A stretch of 12,498 bases of DNA from a virus (Duplodnaviria > Heunggongvirae > Uroviricota > Caudoviricetes). A model generated the notes under the pieces. That model saw only the letters and a list, made by a program, of their open reading frames with translations, did not search any database and was not told the DNA's origin. The DNA is taken from IMG/VR virus record IMGVR_UViG_2896595138_000006; one strand, 5' to 3'. Position numbers and translations under genes: made by a program. Positions 1,527 through 11,086 of this stretch are shown here, piece by piece (position 1 is the first letter of the stretch; each line of letters starts with the position of its first letter).

Positions 1527-2952
1527 TAATGCCGATCAGTTAAGGATCAGTTGACCGATCCAGTGGCTGTGTAAGAATCCGGAAACGCTCACTTGTTTCC
1601 GGATTTTTTTATGCACATTGGACAGGCTCTTGATCTGGTATCCCGTTACGATTCTCTGCGTAACCCACTGACTTCTCTGGGGGATTACCTCGACCCCGAA
1701 CTCATCTCTCGTTGCCTTGCCGAATCAGGTACTGTAACGCTACGCAAGCGCCGTCTTCCCCTCGAAATGATGGTCTGGTGTATTGTTGGCATGGCGCTTG
1801 AGCGTAAAGAACCTCTTCACCAGATTGTGAATCGCCTGGACATCATGCTGCCGGGCAATCGCCCCTTCGTTGCCCCCAGTGCCGTTATTCAGGCCCGCCA
1901 GCGCCTGGGAAGTGAGGCTGTCCGCCGCGTGTTCACGAAAACAGCTCAGCTCTGGCATAACGCCACGCCGCATCCGCACTGGTGCGGCCTGACCCTGCTG
2001 GCCATCGATGGTGTGTTCTGGCGCACACCGGATACACCAGAGAACGATGCAGCCTTCCCCCGCCAGACACATGCCGGGAACCCGGCGCTCTACCCGCAGG
2101 TCAAAATGGTCTGCCAGATGGAACTGACCAGCCATCTGCTGACGGCTGCAGCCTTCGGCACGATGAAGAACAGCGAAAATGAGCTTGCTGAGCAACTTAT
2201 AGAACAAACCGGCGATAACACTCTGACGTTAATGGATAAAGGTTATTACTCACTGGGACTGTTAAATGCCTGGAGCCTGGCGGGAGAACACCGCCACTGG
2301 ATGATACCTCTCAGAAAGGGAGCGCAATATGAAGAGCTCAGAAAACTGGGTAAAGGCGATCATCTGGTGAAGCTGAAAACCAGCCCGCAGGCACGAAAAA
2401 AGTGGCCGGGACTGGGAAATGAAGTGACAGCCCGCCTGCTGACCGTGACGCGCAAAGGAAAAGTCTGCCATCTGCTGACGTCGATGACGGACGCCATGCG
2501 CTTCCCCGGAGGAGAAATGGCGGATCTGTACAGTCATCGCTGGGAAATCGAACTGGGATACAGGGAGATAAAACAGACGATGCAACTGAGCAGGCTGACG
2601 CTGAGAAGTAAAAAGCCGGAGCTTGTGGAGCAAGAGCTGTGGGGTGTCTTACTGGCTTATAATCTGGTGAGATATCAGATGATTAAAATGGCGGAACATC
2701 TGAAAGGTTACTGGCCGAATCAACTGAGTTTCTCAGAATCATGCGGAATGGTGATGAGAATGCTGATGACATTGCAGGGCGCTTCACCGGGACGTATACC
2801 GGAGCTGATGCGCGATCTTGCAAGTATGGGACAACTTGTGAAATTACCGACGAGAAGGGGAAGGGCCTTCCCGAGAGTGGTAAAGGAGAGGCCCTGGAAA
2901 TACCCCACAGCCCCGAAAAAGAGCCAGTCAGTTGCTTAACTGACTGGCATTA
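1527..2952 (+). mobile_element. Insertion sequence IS4, complete copy (1426 bp)
   Basis: Terminal inverted repeats TAATGCCGATCAGTTAAG (1527-1544) and CTTAACTGACTGGCATTA (2935-2952), 16/18 match. The 1426-bp length and the 442-aa transposase agree with IS4 as remembered. Flanked by a 13-bp direct duplication. Confidence 0.92.
1611..2939 (+). CDS. insG: IS4 transposase (DDE family)
   Basis: 442 aa starting [16 protein letters not shown]. Matches the E. coli IS4 transposase essentially throughout, from memory. A hairpin plus T run (1577-1610) sits immediately before the ATG. Confidence 0.92.
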
Positions 2953-3280: not shown

Positions 3281-3478
3281 TTATTCTGATTCTTTGGCCT
3301 TCCTGCGCTGTTCATATTTTAATTTGCGTCCACAGGCATCTAAGACCCATGCGGAAAAATTAGCACTAGGATTAGTTAATTTTTCTTGTTCAACGCTGGC
3401 ATAAACCCCATCTATAAGCTCATGTGGGAATCGAATATTTTTCTTTGCTGATTTGTTGTTTGTGTTACCGCTAGACAT
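3281..3478 (-). CDS. Arc/Mnt-like ribbon-helix-helix DNA-binding protein (putative repressor)
   Basis: 65 aa. The segment NIRFPHELIDGVYASVEQEKLTNPSANFSAWVLDA resembles the beta-strand plus two-helix pattern of P22 Arc (..NLRWPREVLDLVRKVAEENGRSVNSEIYQRV..). Shine-Dalgarno GAGGT lies 6 nt before the ATG on the minus strand. Divergent from an operator-bearing promoter. Confidence 0.6.
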   Translation of the reverse strand: MSSGNTNNKSAKKNIRFPHELIDGVYASVEQEKLTNPSANFSAWVLDACGRKLKYEQRRKAKESE

Positions 3479-3505
3479 TGATGCACCTCACTTAAATGGA
3501 CTTTA

Positions 3506-3586
3506 TGGGCGCACACAATACAGCAAAAAAAATGAGATGTTAAGTATTGACATGTGCGCACACATGATTTTAATCTGTGCGCACAG
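3506..3586 (+). promoter_or_regulatory. Rightward sigma70-like promoter (TTGACA 3547-3552, 16-bp spacer, TTTAAT 3569-3574) with palindromic operators TGTGCGCACA at 3553-3562 and 3576-3585 and a 9/10 copy at 3506-3515
   Basis: Hexamers and perfect 10-bp palindromes read directly. One operator sits in the -35/-10 spacer and one at about +1; the third lies in the leader of the divergent RHH gene. Confidence 0.45.
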
Positions 3587-3846
3587 TTTGAGTTTTGTCA
3601 CTCAAATTAAGCAACGCCCCGCAGTGCTCGCAACACATGCAGGGCGTCTAACCACCAACGATAGCAACAGTATCGAGGTAGCTATGTTAAATCATACCAC
3701 ACACCTGCAAGGGCGGGACTCGCACAACCTGAATAAAGCGGGTATGAAAAACCAGTTGATCGCCACTGCCAGCCAAGGCTATGATTCGCGTGCACCTTAT
3801 AAAACGGGTGCCGGGATTAGGACCCCGCTGACAATCGAGGCGATAC

Positions 3847-3869
3847 AGACGCCGCACGCGTCTTTTTTT
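3847..3869 (+). terminator. Intrinsic terminator inside the rightward leader (AGACGC-cgcac-GCGTCT then T7)
   Basis: 6-bp stem 3847-3852/3858-3863, T run 3863-3869. Lies about 280 nt downstream of the promoter and before the first icd-like unit. Could define a leader RNA or an attenuator. Confidence 0.4.
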
Positions 3870-3931
3870 GTATCGACGCACACGCACACCTATACAATGG
3901 TGGGCTGTATGGGGCTACCTTCGGGTAGGCT

Positions 3932-4028
3932 GGTTCCCTTGATTGCCAGTAGTCCTAACCCTGTACAGTCCACCGCCAGCGAGCTTAGGACCTCCGGCGG
4001 TGGTTACATTCCATCAATCAAGGAGGCT
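3932..4028 (+). promoter_or_regulatory. Unit-1 leader element: anti-Shine-Dalgarno segment (3932-3945) complementary to the Shine-Dalgarno region (4015-4028) of the first icd-like ORF
   Basis: CCTTGATTG (3937-3945) is the exact reverse complement of CAATCAAGG (4015-4023), which overlaps the Shine-Dalgarno sequence AAGGAGG (4020-4026). Confidence 0.35.
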
Positions 4029-4034
4029 GCCGAC

Positions 4035-4223
4035 ATGGCTACTACCCCTACCCTTGTACATTCTCAAACAGCCTTTCTCTGGCGCTTTATCGCCTTTGGT
4101 GCGTCAGAGTCCCAAATCATCCACGTCACCGCCTGGACTGAACGCGAAGCGCGTAACCATTGCCCGTCCGGTTGTGTTGCTGTATTCGCGGCCCGTATTC
4201 GTCAGGGGGTTGGCCATGCGTAA
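4035..4223 (+). CDS. Small Icd-like/Ash-family protein (62 aa); a longer in-frame form could begin at ATG 3897
   Basis: Strong Shine-Dalgarno AAGGAGG 8 nt upstream of the ATG at 4035. Motifs FLWRF, TAWTEREAR and FAARIRQG are shared with the downstream paralogue. The family name is recalled from annotations of P4-like islands, not verified. Confidence 0.55.
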   Translation: MATTPTLVHSQTAFLWRFIAFGASESQIIHVTAWTEREARNHCPSGCVAVFAARIRQGVGHA

Positions 4224-4906: not shown

Positions 4907-6103
4907 TTATGACCCCTGCGGGGTATAAAAAGTCCCGTCGCGCATCATGGCGAACAGAACGTCGCAGCGTCGTCTCGCCAGGGCGATAAGCGCCTGATTG
5001 TGTCGTTTTCCCTGACTCATTTTGCGGGTGTAGTAAGCCCTGGAGAGCGGATCCCTGAGCGCGGCGAAGGCCAACAGGAACAACGCCCGTTTGAGAGCTT
5101 TATTACCCCGTCGCGAGGGATGCTCACCGCGTATTGACGAGCCGGATCGCCGAGTTACCGGCGCAAGGCCAGCATAAGCAGCGAGATGTGCGGCAGAGGC
5201 GAAGGCGCGGCAGGCGACCTCGGTGAGGAGTCTGGCTGCGGTCCTGACACCGACTCCGGGCATACTGGTCAGGACCGGGTAAAGAGGGTGAGCAAGAACT
5301 CGCTGTTCTACCTCAAGCGCCACCTCGTCTCTTTGCTTACGCAGCGTGATGAGCTGGAGTGCCAGACGTGGCAGTACTACGGCAGCGGCATTCGTGCCGG
5401 GAACGACGACGGTTTGTTCGGCCAGTGCCTGAGCTATGTCTGCTGCAAGGCGTTTACCCAGACGAGGCGCAAGTTTGCAGAGCTGGGCTGCCAGCTTCTT
5501 CTCACCCAGCGAAGCGAGTTTTTCTGGTGAGGGATATCGCTGGAGAAGATCGAGTACCGCCGGGTGCTCAAGTCTCGGACCGAGAACGCGCTCCAGTGCC
5601 GGATGTATCTGGGTCAGAAGGCCGCGGAGACGGTTGCTGGCCTGCGTTGTCTGTGCGGCAAGATCATCATCGAAGCCGCAGAGCATGGAGAGTTCGGCGA
5701 TTTGCTCGTCAGCCAGTTTCAGCGTGCGTAGCGCGTGAGGCAGGGTACGGGCAGCTTCGGCAATGATGGCAGCGTCACGAGCATCAGTTTTAGCTTCACC
5801 GGCGTGTAAGTCGGCTATGCGGCGCATGGCCAGTCCAGGGAGGTATCCGACAAGGACTCCTTCTGAGCGGGCAACGGCGACAGGTAACGCACCGATGGTA
5901 GCTGGCTGATCAACAACCAGCAGTATCTGACCATGTTGTTTCAGGTCAGATATTAGCGACCTGAGTTTGTTTTCGTCGTTGGGTAATGCTTTATCGAACA
6001 GGCGTTTACCTGAACGATTAATGGCAACAGCGTGATGCGTATCTTTACCGACATCAACGCCGATAAAGACCTGGACGGATTCGTAATCGCTGGATTCGGT
6101 CAT
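4907..6103 (-). CDS. IS110-family transposase/recombinase (N-terminal DEDD RuvC-like domain plus C-terminal Transposase_20 domain)
   Basis: N-terminus VFIGVDVGKDTHHAVAI and C-terminal LTSMPGVGVRTAARLL...AAYAGLAPVTRRSGSS are the hallmark motifs of IS110-family enzymes. Shine-Dalgarno AGGGAG lies 5 nt before the ATG on the minus strand. Confidence 0.9.
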   Translation of the reverse strand: MTESSDYESVQVFIGVDVGKDTHHAVAINRSGKRLFDKALPNDENKLRSLISDLKQHGQILLVVDQPATIGALPVAVARSEGVLVGYLPGLAMRRIADLHAGEAKTDARDAAIIAEAARTLPHALRTLKLADEQIAELSMLCGFDDDLAAQTTQASNRLRGLLTQIHPALERVLGPRLEHPAVLDLLQRYPSPEKLASLGEKKLAAQLCKLAPRLGKRLAADIAQALAEQTVVVPGTNAAAVVLPRLALQLITLRKQRDEVALEVEQRVLAHPLYPVLTSMPGVGVRTAARLLTEVACRAFASAAHLAAYAGLAPVTRRSGSSIRGEHPSRRGNKALKRALFLLAFAALRDPLSRAYYTRKMSQGKRHNQALIALARRRCDVLFAMMRDGTFYTPQGS

Positions 6104-6681: not shown

Positions 6682-6873
6682 GTGGAGGAACGGCGCGTAA
6701 CCTACCGTCGTGAAGGCTACGAATATGATTGCGTGATGCCTGTTTATCAGTTCGACCGTGATTTTTCTCTTGTGCAGGCCGTACCGCGTAACGTGCCCAC
6801 CAGCAGGGAGAAAGCACGCGCCAATATTCAGGAAATAAAAAAGATGCTTAACGTATTCAGGGGTAAAAAATGA
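6682..6873 (+). CDS. Hypothetical protein (63 aa, GTG start), translationally coupled to the primase gene
   Basis: Its stop overlaps the primase start (ATGA at 6870-6873). Upstream Shine-Dalgarno spacing is poor, so the start is uncertain. Confidence 0.35.
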   Translation: MEERRVTYRREGYEYDCVMPVYQFDRDFSLVQAVPRNVPTSREKARANIQEIKKMLNVFRGKK

Positions 6874-8624
6874 AACTGGCACCGAACGTAAAAAAACAGC
6901 CACGCGGAATAAAACACAAAGACACAGAGGTAATTATCTTTGCGGGTAGTGATGCCTGGGCACACGCGAAACAGTGGCAGGAACATGACGCGCGTACAGC
7001 CGGAGATAATGAGCCTCCTGTGTGGCTTGGAGAGCAGCAGCTATCCGAACTGGATAATCTGCAAATTGTGCCGGATGGCAGAAAATCAGCACGCATATAC
7101 AGAGCCGGACATCTTGAGCCTGTAATGATCAAGGCGATTGGTCAGAAGCTGGCGGCGGCAGGTGTACAGGATGCAAATTTTTATCTTGAGGGTATGCACG
7201 GCCAGGAGGTGCAGAACTGGCGCGAATATCTGGCCCGTGAACGCCAGAATCTTTCTGATGGTCTGGTCATTGAGCTTCCGGTAAAGCAAAAGGCGCAACT
7301 TTCGCAGATGGCAGACAGTGAGCGCGCACAGATGCTTGCTGGTCGATTTGATGGCGTTTGTGTGCATCCGGAAAGTGAAATCGTTCACGTATGGCGCGGC
7401 GGGATATGGTGTCCGGTCAGCACAATGGAACTGAGCCGCGAAATGGTGGCGGTTTATTCAGAACACGGGGCCACATTCAGCAAGCGGGCAATTAATAACG
7501 CCGTTGAAGCGTTAAAAGTTATTGCTGACCCGATGGGCGAGCCGTCCAGTGATTTGCTACCGTTCACTAATGGTGTGCTTAACCTGAAAACGGGGGAATT
7601 TTCCCCGCACACGCCGGAGAACTGGATCACCACGCACAACGGCATTGAGTACACGCCACCAGCACCAGGGGAGAATATCCGCGACAACGCGCCAAACTTT
7701 CATAAATGGCTTGATCACGCAGCCGGAAAAGACCCGCGCAAGATGATGCGCATATGTGCCGCGCTTTACATGATTATGGCGAACCGGTACGACTGGCAGA
7801 TGTTTATTGAGGCCACCGGAGACGGCGGGAGCGGTAAAAGTACATTCACACACATAGCCAGCCTTCTGGCAGGGAAACAGAACACGGTAAGCGCTGAAAT
7901 GACATCGCTTGATGATGCTGGTGGACGTGCGCAGGTTGTCGGGAGTCGTCTTATCGTCCTGGCTGACCAGCCGAAATATACAGGCGAAGGAACGGGCATC
8001 AAGAAAATCACGGGCGGCGACCCCGTGGAAATTAACCCGAAATATGAAAAGCGTTTCACGGCGGTAATCAGGGCGGTGGTGCTGGCGACCGACAACAACC
8101 CGATGATATTCACCGAACGGGCCGGAGGTGTGGCACGTCGTCGCGTGATTTTCCGTTTCGACAATATCGTCAGTGAGGCCGAAAAAGACAGGGAGCTACC
8201 GGAAAAGATTGCGGCTGAAATCCCCGTTATTATCCGCCGATTGCTGGCGAACTTTACCGACCCTGAGAAGGCACGGGCTTTACTACTGGAACAGCGTGAC
8301 GGTGATGAAGCACTGGCAATAAAGCAACAGACGGATCCGGTTATTGAGTTTTGCCAGTTCCTGAATTTTCTGGAGGAAGCGCGCGGCCTGATGATGGGTG
8401 GCGGTGGTGATTCAGTGAAGTACACGACCAGGAACAGCCTTTACCGCGTCTATCTGGCGTTTATGGCATACGCAGGCAGGAGCAAACCGCTAAACGTAAA
8501 TGACTTTGGCAAGGCTATGAAGCCTGCCGCAAAAGTTTACGGACATGAATATATTACGCGGAAAGTTAAGGGGGTAACGCAGACTAACGCAATAACAACA
8601 GACGAGTGCGACGCGTTTTTATAA
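6870..8624 (+). CDS. Primase/helicase, phage P4 alpha-like (D5-N-type plus SF3 helicase domain)
   Basis: 584 aa. Walker A motif ATGDGGSGKSTF and the surrounding pattern (IVLADQP, VLATDNNP) match the P4-family primase C-terminal helicase domain as remembered. The N-terminal 200 aa are consistent with a Toprim-like domain. Followed by the iteron cluster. Confidence 0.88.
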   Translation: MKLAPNVKKQPRGIKHKDTEVIIFAGSDAWAHAKQWQEHDARTAGDNEPPVWLGEQQLSELDNLQIVPDGRKSARIYRAGHLEPVMIKAIGQKLAAAGVQDANFYLEGMHGQEVQNWREYLARERQNLSDGLVIELPVKQKAQLSQMADSERAQMLAGRFDGVCVHPESEIVHVWRGGIWCPVSTMELSREMVAVYSEHGATFSKRAINNAVEALKVIADPMGEPSSDLLPFTNGVLNLKTGEFSPHTPENWITTHNGIEYTPPAPGENIRDNAPNFHKWLDHAAGKDPRKMMRICAALYMIMANRYDWQMFIEATGDGGSGKSTFTHIASLLAGKQNTVSAEMTSLDDAGGRAQVVGSRLIVLADQPKYTGEGTGIKKITGGDPVEINPKYEKRFTAVIRAVVLATDNNPMIFTERAGGVARRRVIFRFDNIVSEAEKDRELPEKIAAEIPVIIRRLLANFTDPEKARALLLEQRDGDEALAIKQQTDPVIEFCQFLNFLEEARGLMMGGGGDSVKYTTRNSLYRVYLAFMAYAGRSKPLNVNDFGKAMKPAAKVYGHEYITRKVKGVTQTNAITTDECDAFL

Positions 8625-8636
8625 TTTTTTGTAATT

Positions 8637-8855
8637 GCTGTCTACCTGAGCAAAGGAAAATACATTTAATTCAGTACATTAAGTTAGGTAGACAGCTTTT
8701 TTTTACTGTCTACCCACTATCTACCCTCTCTACCTGATTTTACCTGAATCAGACAGGGAGGTAGACACGGGGTAGATAGTGGATAAAAACACTCTACCCC
8801 GCTGAAAGCCGCGCCATTACTGGCATGAGGGCCAGCAAGGTAGATAAGGTAGACA
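8637..8855. repeat. Iteron cluster, probable replication origin (ori/crr-like): about 10 copies of the octamer TGTCTACC / GGTAGACA and close variants
   Basis: TGTCTACC at 8639-8646 and 8707-8714; TATCTACC at 8718-8725; TCTCTACC at 8727-8734; GGTAGACA at 8687-8694, 8760-8767 and 8848-8855; GGTAGATA at 8771-8778 and 8839-8846; partial copies at 8738-8744 and 8793-8799. An 11-bp perfect inverted repeat (8637-8647 / 8686-8696) flanks an AT-rich 38-bp spacer and is followed by a T8 run. The octamer resembles the P4 alpha-binding repeat TGTTCACC. Confidence 0.65.
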
Positions 8856-8902
8856 AGGGGAGGCACAACTCAAAACTTTTTAAACGAGGGGTAAAAATAA
8901 AC

Positions 8903-9064
8903 ATGCACACTTCAGGAAAATTTAATAAATCACTCAAAAAACGCAGAGACAGAACAGAACCGAAATATCGCGCGTTAGACATGACAGAGCACGCTTTAAA
9001 GGTGGCAATCAGAACGATAGACCGCCACGCGGGGAAGGATACGCGAAGGAACATCCCGACCTGA
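8903..9064 (+). CDS. Hypothetical small basic protein (53 aa)
   Basis: ATG at 8903 with GAGGGG about 12 nt upstream. Lys/Arg-rich. The 5' part of the longer ORF in the track overlaps the iterons and was trimmed. Confidence 0.3.
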   Translation: MHTSGKFNKSLKKRRDRTEPKYRALDMTEHALKVAIRTIDRHAGKDTRRNIPT

Positions 9065-9176
9065 TAAGCGCATTCATGACCACAGCAGCGGCAAACTTTG
9101 CCACGCTGACAGAACGGGAGATTGCCGAAGCGGAACAGGTAACAACCATCAACGTTAAAACCGGAGAGGTGGAATC

Positions 9177-9587
9177 ATGACAGCACAGATAGCAGCTTAC
9201 GGACGGTTGGTGGACGACCCGCAGGTAAAACAGACCAGCAAGGGCACACCGATGACGCTGGCGCGTATGGCGGTATCGCTGCCATGCAGCCAGGCACAGG
9301 ACGGACAGGCGACGTTATGGCTATCGGTGATGGCATTTGGTAAGCAGGCCGACTTCCTGGCTAAACATCAAAAAGGCGACGTTGCCAGCGTATCCGGCAC
9401 GATGCAGGTCAGCCAGTGGACCGGACAGAACGGGGAAACGCGGCAGGGTTATCAGGTTATTGCCGACAGCGTAATCAGTGCCCGAGCGGCACGCCCTGGC
9501 GGGAACAGACGCAAAACCACAGGCACACAGGGTAATCAGCCACCAGCGGGAGACGATGACCCCTACGGTGATGATATTCCGTTCTGA
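9177..9587 (+). CDS. ssb: Single-stranded DNA-binding protein (SSB), phage/plasmid type
   Basis: 136 aa. OB-fold pattern (G.L..DP.V.......P..LA......WLSVMAFGKQADFLAKH.KGD...V.G......W....G..R.G) followed by a Gly/Gln-rich linker and the acidic tail DDDPYGDDIPF characteristic of SSB. Shine-Dalgarno GGAGAGGTGG upstream. Confidence 0.85.
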   Translation: MTAQIAAYGRLVDDPQVKQTSKGTPMTLARMAVSLPCSQAQDGQATLWLSVMAFGKQADFLAKHQKGDVASVSGTMQVSQWTGQNGETRQGYQVIADSVISARAARPGGNRRKTTGTQGNQPPAGDDDPYGDDIPF

Positions 9588-9824: not shown

Positions 9825-10031
9825 ATGACAGAAGAGAAAAAAGGCGGGGTGACAGTTTACATAAGCCCCGATATCGTGGAGGCGCTCAAGGAACGCCACC
9901 AGCAGAACGTAAAAGCGGGCATTGCGGCAGGACTTGATCCGCTGGCGATGGTTGAGCCGTCAACAGGCTGGCAGGTACGCGCCTATTTACGTGCGGCGCT
10001 TGGCATGAATCAGACTCATGAGGGTGAATAA
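9825..10031 (+). CDS. Hypothetical protein (68 aa), first gene of the head module
   Basis: AAGGA lies 10 nt upstream. Stop overlaps the capsid gene start (TAATG), suggesting translational coupling. No recognisable motif. Confidence 0.5.
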   Translation: MTEEKKGGVTVYISPDIVEALKERHQQNVKAGIAAGLDPLAMVEPSTGWQVRAYLRAALGMNQTHEGE

Positions 10032-11086
10032 TGGCAGACAAAGCAACGGCACTTAACACTAACCAGCTTTTCGCGTACCTGAATCGCGGGGATATCCCGG
10101 AATTTAAATTCAGTCCGCTGTTTACCACGCTGTTTTTCCCGAAAGTAGCAACCTTCAACACACAAGATGTCATGCTGGATACCCTGGACATTGAAGAAGT
10201 CACCATGTCGGCGTTTTGTTCGCCTGTGGTGGGTAGCCAGGTTCAGCGTGATAAAGGGTACGAAACAAGCACTATCCGCCCTGGCTACATGAAACCCAAA
10301 CACGAAATCGATCCATCAAAAACCATCATGCGCATGGCTGGAGAAGATCCGGCACTGCTTAACGACCCCACCTGGCGACGTATGCGCCTCATTACTGGCA
10401 ACATGCGCCGCCAGATAAACGCCATTAAAGCGCGTGTGGAATGGCTGGCAGTGAATGCGGTCACGACCGGAAAAAACATCATTGAAGGCGAAGGCATAGA
10501 ACGCTATGAAATCGACTGGAATATGCCGGCAAACTGCATTGTCCATCAGGGGCCAGGAAAAAAATGGTCTGAGCAGAATAAAGAGACGCATGATCCGACA
10601 GATGACATCGAGCTATACGCCGAACAGGCCAGCTGCCCCGCCAACGTCATGATTATGGGCGCTGACGTATGGCGCACCTTACGTAGCTTTAAAAAATTCC
10701 GCGAGCTGTACGATCTTTCCCGTGGTTCAGAATCCGCCGCAGAGCTGGCGTGTAAAAACCTGGGCGAAGTGGTGAGCTTTAAAGGCTATCTGGGTGATCT
10801 GGCCCTTATCGTCTATTCCGGCAAATACACCGACAGCGACGGCACCGAAAAATATTTCCTTGAGCCTGATTTGCTTGTCCTGGGCAACACCAGCAATAAA
10901 GGTCTGGTGGCCTATGGCGCGATTATGGATCCGGAAGCGGTAAGAACGGGCGCAACGCAAAACATGTACTACCCGAAAAACTGGATTGAGAGCGGCGATC
11001 CGGCGATTGAGTACGTGCAGACGCACAGCGCACCGCAGCCGGTTCCGGCAGATATCCGCAAATTTGTTACTGTGAAAATTGGTTAA
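10031..11086 (+). CDS. Major capsid protein, lambda gpE-like (Phage_cap_E family)
   Basis: 351 aa. Multiple blocks align by eye with lambda gpE: FKFSPLFTTLFF, PGYMKPKHE, HDPTDDIELYA, LRSFKKF, LGEVVSFKGYLGDLALIVYSGKY, LVLGNTSNKGLVAYGAIMD, YYPKNWIESGDPAIEY and QTHSAPQP. Shine-Dalgarno GAGGGTGA upstream. Confidence 0.9.
   Translation: MADKATALNTNQLFAYLNRGDIPEFKFSPLFTTLFFPKVATFNTQDVMLDTLDIEEVTMSAFCSPVVGSQVQRDKGYETSTIRPGYMKPKHEIDPSKTIMRMAGEDPALLNDPTWRRMRLITGNMRRQINAIKARVEWLAVNAVTTGKNIIEGEGIERYEIDWNMPANCIVHQGPGKKWSEQNKETHDPTDDIELYAEQASCPANVMIMGADVWRTLRSFKKFRELYDLSRGSESAAELACKNLGEVVSFKGYLGDLALIVYSGKYTDSDGTEKYFLEPDLLVLGNTSNKGLVAYGAIMDPEAVRTGATQNMYYPKNWIESGDPAIEYVQTHSAPQPVPADIRKFVTVKIG

Follow-up and report, generated by a model that had tools for sequence, protein, structure and literature searches.

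EcCICFT073 is the prototype of the Gram-negative phage-inducible chromosomal islands (PICIs) and carries a capsid homologue (c1499) and a decoration protein (c1500) (Fillol-Salom et al. 2018, ISME J, PMC6092414). In Gram-positive PICIs the origin is located directly 3' of the replication initiator gene, and the corresponding region of EcCICFT073 was described as the PICI ori in the same study. A pri-ori fragment of EcCICFT073 kept a temperature-sensitive plasmid at 44 C. When pri was deleted the plasmid was not maintained at this temperature, and when ori was deleted, which removed the entire intergenic region and not the repeats specifically, maintenance was significantly reduced but not abolished (PMC6092414). 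The origins of SaPIbov1, SaPI1 and SaPI5 are likewise found directly 3' of rep and consist of 6-12 short opposed iterons that flank a region rich in AT. The SaPI initiator is a self-loading SF3 helicase with a C-terminal winged-helix domain, and binding of PriRep5 to its own iteron origin requires the C-terminal domain (PMC9371898).

The DNA analyzed here (the window) is a stretch of 12,498 nucleotides from the IMG/VR virus record IMGVR_UViG_2896595138_000006 (Caudoviricetes). When its genes were identified using Pfam and their synteny was compared with CFT073 and Nissle 1917, the gene content and order of an EcCICFT073-type PICI (int, regulators, DUF4222, pri-rep, ori, ssb, capsid homologue and decoration protein) were observed (Table 1). 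The homologous island in Nissle 1917 and CFT073 lies between roxA and phoQ and has the same gene order. The 801 bp around the repeat cluster at 8637-8855 have matches in 1,468 complete E. coli genomes, and the top ones (Nissle 1917 among them) are about 96 % identical. For the window as a whole, the best E. coli matches cover 60-65 % at about 90-92 % identity, the rest being IS DNA, and coverage by any one complete E. coli genome stays at or below 65 % because of the IS insertions. The left part of the island, which is regulatory, is interrupted by both transposase genes. The small PHROG-1231 gene that follows the cluster is shorter in the window (53 aa) than in Nissle 1917 (92 aa) or CFT073 (85 aa), and its remainder can be read, in a different frame, as far as the start of ssb. 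Judged by its genes and their order, the window is an IS-riddled EcCICFT073-type PICI, a phage satellite.

Table 1 Features of the replication region and of the surrounding island in the window (positions in nucleotides of the 12,498-nt stretch)
Feature	Position	Strand	Remarks
IS4-family transposase gene	1593..2939	+	Pfam
Ash-family protein gene	3453..4223		Pfam
IS110-family transposase gene	4907..6103	-	Pfam
DUF4222 gene	6682..6873		Pfam
Pri-Rep gene, 584 aa	6870..8624	+	D5_N, SF3 helicase (DUF5906) and Pox_D5-type C-terminal domain (Pfam)
Coding region of the C-terminal origin-binding (winged-helix) domain, residues 488-579	8331..8606	+	phmmer match to PDB 1KA8
Left repeat TGTCTACC	8639..8646	+	single left-hand copy before the AT-rich spacer; two in most alleles
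Module A spacer, 40 nt, 25 % GC	8647..8686	.	between convergent cores; proposed melting site; loosely conserved TTAATTCAGTACATTAAG motif
Repeat TGTCTACC	8687..8694	-	right arm of the inverted repeat
T8 run	8697..8704	+	adjoins the inverted repeat, with which it gives a terminator-like RNA hairpin whose loop is unusually long
Three direct repeats: TGTCTACC at 8707, TATCTACC at 8718, TCTCTACC at 8727-8734	8707..8734	+	spacing 11 and 9 bp
25-nt spacer	8735..8759	.	degenerate copy TTTTACC at 8740-8746; small palindrome CTGATT..AATCAG; read from the sequence and by repeat search
Two repeats: TGTCTACC at 8760-8767, TATCTACC at 8771-8778	8760..8778	-	11 bp apart
Lone repeat ACTCTACC	8791..8798	+	left arm of module B
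Module B spacer, 40 nt, 62 % GC	8799..8838	.	conserved motif AAAGCCGCGCCATTACTGG at 8805-8823
Two terminal repeats: TATCTACC at 8839-8846, TGTCTACC at 8848-8855	8839..8855	-	9 bp apart
Conserved tail CAAAACTTTTTAAACGA; GAGGGG as ribosome-binding site of the following gene	8865..8902	+	inside the published delta-ori deletion
Small PHROG-1231 gene, 53 aa here	8903..9064	+	cut short by a 1-bp deletion near 9030
Single-strand DNA-binding protein (SSB) gene, replication module	9177..9587	+	Pfam SSB; RefSeq annotation of homologues
E-type major capsid protein gene	10031..11086		Pfam

When the pattern TRTCTACC was counted on both strands of the whole 12.5-kb window, eight copies were found, all inside 8639-8855, against an expectation of 0.38; none of 200 shuffles contained at least eight. 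The 6-nt core TCTACC occurs 12 times in the window, 10 of them within 8641-8853, and adds two copies (TCTCTACC and ACTCTACC) to those found with the longer pattern. The repeat search also detected an inverted repeat of 11 bp without mismatches (8637-8647 / 8686-8696), whose arms are 38 nt apart, and the GC content of the spacer between them (8648-8685) is 26.3 %, compared with 51.7 % window-wide. These results agree with a previous sequence-only reading, which had counted about ten octamers in both orientations, described the inverted repeat around a 38-nt AT-rich spacer and pointed to 8647-8686 as a possible AT-rich element. The same reading had regarded the ORFs overlapping the cluster as probably spurious, and the annotated RefSeq homologues and PHROG 1231 do start at the ATG equivalent to 8903.

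Read from core to core, the cluster begins with one plus repeat, a 40-nt spacer (25 % GC), one minus repeat and the T8 run, which are followed by three plus repeats, a 25-nt spacer, two minus repeats, one plus repeat, a 40-nt spacer (62 % GC) and two minus repeats. It contains two modules of convergent repeats around about 40 nt, module A with the AT-rich spacer and module B with the GC-rich spacer. The window and the complete EcCICFT073 island have one TCTACC cluster each, and a search of both revealed no second one. When 50 distinct alleles from this class of origin were compared, conservation was higher in the repeat-core columns than in the remaining columns of the intergenic region (0.885 vs. 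0.708, Mann-Whitney p = 3e-11), and in the allele alignment the columns of the module B spacer are highly conserved. As single-stranded DNA, the module A spacer has essentially no structure (dG -0.1).

The published primers (supplement of PMC6092414) were mapped onto CFT073 (locus L005) for comparison with the described ori. The pri-ori fragment corresponds to L005 12198-14307, and the pri-delta-ori fragment ends at L005 14000, which is position 8628 of the window, four bases past the pri-rep stop; therefore, the deleted ori corresponds to about 8629-8925 of the window. The cluster falls wholly within it. Aligned base for base, the intergenic region of the window is about 95 % identical to that of EcCICFT073. 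On the strength of this alignment, the cluster is an allele (about 95 % identical) of the already described and tested EcCICFT073 origin and not a new kind of element, which upholds the iteron-type origin of the sequence-only reading. We consider it very probable that the cluster is the cis-acting replication origin of an EcCICFT073-type PICI and that it is bound, melted and loaded with helicase via Pri-Rep. Directly shown are the repeats themselves, with their non-random clustering and their conservation, and the homology; in addition, a function has been published for the CFT073 region, which is nearly identical.

Pri-Rep is 94.7 % identical to the EcCICFT073 Pri-Rep, and its C-terminal domain is 99 % identical to that of CFT073. 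Using Pfam and matches to solved structures, we found the SF3 helicase and the C-terminal winged-helix domain of a PICI/SaPI-type initiator: residues 226-432 match 7OLA, the SaPI5 PriRep5 helicase, and residues 488-579 match 1KA8, the solved origin-binding domain of P4 alpha (phmmer, E = 7.2e-7). The homology to the P4 alpha domain supports the proposal that the octamers are the cognate binding site of the island's own primase/helicase. The Pri-Rep stop ends at 8624 and the first repeat begins at 8639, and the same arrangement was observed in 86 related loci.

P4 alpha and Pri-Rep share 40 % identity in an alignment confined to Pri-Rep residues 141-579. No catalytic primase domain was recognized in residues 1-140/160 using Pfam and NCBIfam, and the Zn-ribbon/Toprim primase part of P4 alpha did not align to residues 1-140 (window 6870-7289), for which the matches are confined to PHROG 864, 2850 and 1139. 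Thus, of the label 'primase/helicase' that the gene had been given, the helicase half (SF3, DUF5906) stands, and for the primase half no catalytic domain is recognizable with Pfam, NCBIfam or the P4 alpha alignment; for this reason, 'primase-dependent' replication is not established. The Morganella relative is 794 aa long and has a long N-terminus with a weak DnaG-type match.

A scan of genome contigs with the single protein gave only 3 loci. An alignment-based scan of IMG/VR yielded 80 further loci and with them useful diversity, and words were counted de novo in the 330 nt past each primase stop. Three word classes were observed (TCTACC, TGTTCA and GTATAC, the last also seen as GTATACA). Serratia aquatilis and Morganella morganii, whose primases are 53 % and 52 % identical, respectively, have the same layout directly past the primase stop: two plus repeats, an AT-rich spacer of about 40 nt, one minus repeat and then plus repeats at 20, 11 and about 10 bp. 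Their words are TGTTCAC and TGTTCAT (9 found vs. 0.8 expected and 14 vs. 1.4), and the 20/11/9-10 spacing is common to CFT073, Serratia and Morganella. The first gene downstream varies (the small PHROG-1231 ORF, SSB, a TerS-like HTH protein and others), and the cluster always follows the primase. Another downstream gene is possibly ProQ/FinO-like, its translation having been judged by eye.

The word classes TCTACC, TGTTCA and GTATAC are accompanied by divergent C-terminal domains at similar core identity. When the initiators were compared, the identity of the C-terminal domains was 45-76 % between lineages with the same word and 31-40 % between TCTACC lineages, Pri-Rep of the window included, and TGTTCA lineages, at a core identity (Pri-Rep residues 150-487) of about 60-65 %. 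The relatives keep the architecture with other words and the C-terminal domain diverges alongside the word, as would be expected if the altered repeat defined a distinct replicon specificity, which had been suggested before. In these sequences, only about two independent events underlie the match between repeat word and C-terminal domain. The TCTACC lineages form one clade, so that its covariation counts essentially as one event, and the second event (L078 vs. L079) is not clean because the origins carry mixed words. Both loci belong to L078-L086, IMG/VR loci with a primase about 54 % identical to that of the window. L078 and L081 (dominant repeat GGTGTTCAT) and L079, L080 and L083 (dominant repeat GGTATACAT) have 99 % identical cores and few C-terminal substitutions, the subgroups being distinguished by GMLVGN/GMMVGN, PRV/PRI and KTRGVVTN/ARGMVTN. 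From this comparison, it is conceivable, if rather improbable, that two or three residues near the C-terminus (KTRGVVTN vs. ARGMVTN) retune the repeat specificity, and if this is true, the L078/L079 pair is a natural map of specificity determinants.

In the mechanism that we propose for the origin, Pri-Rep would be expressed as SF3 helicase-initiator after induction of the island. By analogy with the work on SaPIs and P4, its C-terminal winged-helix domain would bind the approximately ten TCTACC-core repeats without ATP, the repeats acting as convergent sets around the two spacers of about 40 nt. The AT-rich spacer would then melt, and helicase rings would self-load at it, probably one per side as a double hexamer, as also modelled on SaPIs and P4. 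Priming would be performed either by the N-terminal domain of Pri-Rep or by the host primase. The island would replicate independently of the chromosome and would then be packaged by the helper phage.

Compared with CFT073, Nissle, Shigella and locus L034, the 9-bp unit CTGTCTACC is deleted at 8637-8647 of the window (junction TTGCTGTCTACCTGAG). Two left cores are present in 60 of the 69 TCTACC-class loci, the clean loss of the 9-bp unit was seen in the window only (1/69), and none of the 316 complete E. coli genomes carrying this origin aligns across the deletion junction. The SaPI norm is at least two repeats on each flank of the AT-rich stretch, whereas the window has ten repeats in both orientations with one on the left. 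Together with the inserted IS4-family and IS110-family transposases and the frameshift in the adjacent small gene, the deletion speaks for an origin by descent that is now a crippled remnant, with inefficient replication from this allele in a decaying island. We regard this as possible but doubtful. The Pri-Rep ORF is intact with its nearly unchanged (99 %) C-terminal domain, the ten repeat cores and both spacers are intact, and the left repeat is mutated in two other loci as well (L045 and L060), which indicates that variation there is tolerated or at least occurs. As far as the sequence allows a judgement, the origin may be weakened in a decaying island that still has an intact Pri-Rep.

The two modules were also compared among the lineages. 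All lineages have an AT-rich module A (11-28 % GC). The spacer of module B is rich in GC in the TCTACC class and AT-rich in L078, L081 and Morganella. The motif AAAGCCGCGCCATTACTGG is highly conserved in the TCTACC class and was also found, with 2 mismatches, in L072/L073 (L072 4313-4331), which have the TGTTCAC word. In L066, L068 and L072 the halves are reversed: the module B half comes first, followed by about 85 nt with the AAAACTTTTT tail and then by the module A half, so that the conserved tail stays with module B in these permuted origins. Two separable modules thus appear to make up the origin. A loose motif, TTAWWTCARTR..TTAAG, is present in the AT-rich spacers of the window (8664-8684), L003, L004, L074 and L078, and its distance from the minus-strand repeat is constant in the different word classes. 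We take it to resemble the IHF core consensus WATCAA-N4-TTR and treat this as a lead only.

Since Pri-Rep is without a recognizable primase domain, we considered whether module B recruits a priming or loading factor. The origin would then be a composite of two separable, permutable modules, of which module A, with its IHF-like TCA..TTA motif, melts and module B, itself or through the word-independent AAAGCCGCGCCATTACTGG, might recruit such a factor from the host or the helper; we think this rather improbable. A single-strand initiation hairpin in the module B spacer was not supported, as both strands fold no better than shuffles (z = -0.02 and -0.54). A strong module B hairpin was found in L066 only, and thus the conserved feature is the sequence and not the structure.

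It is very unlikely that the repeats are mainly transcriptional, that is, a terminator after pri together with operators for the downstream ssb and capsid genes, with replication secondary or none. Although the 11-13-bp inverted repeat and the T8 run fold as an RNA hairpin (dG -20.2, z = -2.55), its loop measures 34-38 nt, the fold is only mildly better than shuffles and other word classes have only a weak T-run. The region falls in a unidirectionally transcribed operon (PMC6092414) and the conserved tail lies just upstream of the ribosome-binding site of the next gene; however, consensus scans gave no promoter-like or terminator-like site, and the word tracks the primase C-terminal domain and not the variable downstream gene. 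L078 and L079, for example, share an identical downstream gene and differ in the repeat word. As a secondary function, a terminator/operator role is possible. Also very unlikely is a crr-like, cis-required enhancer with the true origin elsewhere in the island: P4 crr does sit directly 3' of alpha with ori about 4.5 kb off, both having type-1 repeats in both orientations, and the middle block of the window (three plus, spacer, two minus) resembles one crr unit, but there is just one TCTACC cluster in EcCICFT073 as in the window, and the pri-ori fragment was reported to suffice by itself for plasmid maintenance (PMC6092414).

Other candidates were analyzed and rejected. For a known RNA, an Rfam scan of 8300-9300 gave sub-threshold matches of the miRNA hairpin type only, caused by the inverted repeats. 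A sigma-54 promoter in CTGGCATGAGGGCCAGCA is not suitable, as the GG-GC spacing is off by one (by eye) and the GC is not kept in CFT073. The DnaA box AGTGGATAA / TTATCCACT at 8778-8786 (minus strand) agrees at 8/9 positions, overlaps a repeat and lies in poorly conserved columns; it is probably due to chance. The cluster was also rejected as a cos site, exact lambda-type cosN 12-mers being located some 3.5-4.3 kb downstream of the origin in EcCICFT073 (L005 17559 and 18298). Inside pri-rep, GGGCGGCGACCC at 8012-8023 is one base off the 12-nt lambda cosN cohesive end, and this site is kept in CFT073 (L005 13384-13395). A literature search with the octamer sequence returned unrelated primer matches only.

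The PICI replication origin recognized here belongs to a class found in 316 of 5,426 complete E. coli genomes, and none of the 25 RefSeq records listed has an annotated feature under it. For annotation, a PICI replication module can be recognized by a TCTACC cluster that follows a 'primase' gene of the P4 family, and the repeat word classes could help to predict whether co-resident satellites share each other's initiators or avoid them. As its organisation, position and function were published in 2018, the cluster opens no new question.

Among known systems, the plasmid iteron origins (R6K, pSC101, P1 and F) also have clustered initiator sites beside an AT-rich region. Their iterons are about 17-22 bp long, mostly direct, and are bound by a WH1-WH2 Rep of the RepA/pi family that recruits host DnaB. 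The window is not of this type, since its repeats are 8 bp long and in both orientations and an SF3 helicase serves as its initiator. Papillomavirus E1 and SV40 large T antigen are SF3 initiators that bind short inverted sites flanking an AT-rich stretch and form two hexamers. The likeness of the window to them would be a functional analogy only, as the SF3 fold is the sole sequence relationship and the DNA-binding domain differs in type and position.

In the P4 record NC_001609, 16 'ori type 1 repeats' are annotated, of which 11 read TGTTCACC and the others are one-base variants. Compared with TGTTCACC, TGTCTACC has two substitutions at adjacent positions, within the one or two that had been stated for the P4 alpha-binding repeat. 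P4 resembles the window in its 8-bp repeats in both orientations and in having crr directly 3' of alpha. It differs in the Zn-ribbon/Toprim primase domain of alpha, which has no recognizable counterpart in Pri-Rep, and in the repeat word: the window has TGTCTACC and TATCTACC, and TGTTCA occurs 0 times in its intergenic region, whereas the P4-like TGTTCA word is used by Serratia, Morganella and IMG/VR relatives. The bipartite arrangement of P4, with ori about 4.5 kb from crr, also contrasts with the one cluster of the window and of the complete EcCICFT073. The P4-type kinship proposed earlier is retained as a relationship to the alpha system, but by position the cluster matches P4 crr and not P4 ori.

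The SaPIs are similar in that the origin is 3' of the initiator gene and combines opposed iterons with an AT-rich region, and in the SF3 helicase (7OLA match). The differences are the repeat length (core and flanks of 8 nt in the window, 5-6 nt in SaPIs), the second, GC-rich module of the window with its spacer of about 40 nt and conserved motif, homology that is detectable in the helicase core only, and the host lineage. The EcCICFT073 ori is the same by descent. Compared with it, the window has lost one of two left repeats (9 bp), its small ORF is frameshifted and two IS elements are inserted, while the gene order (DUF4222, pri-rep, ori, small ORF, ssb, capsid and decoration protein) and the word, orientation and spacing of the repeats are shared.
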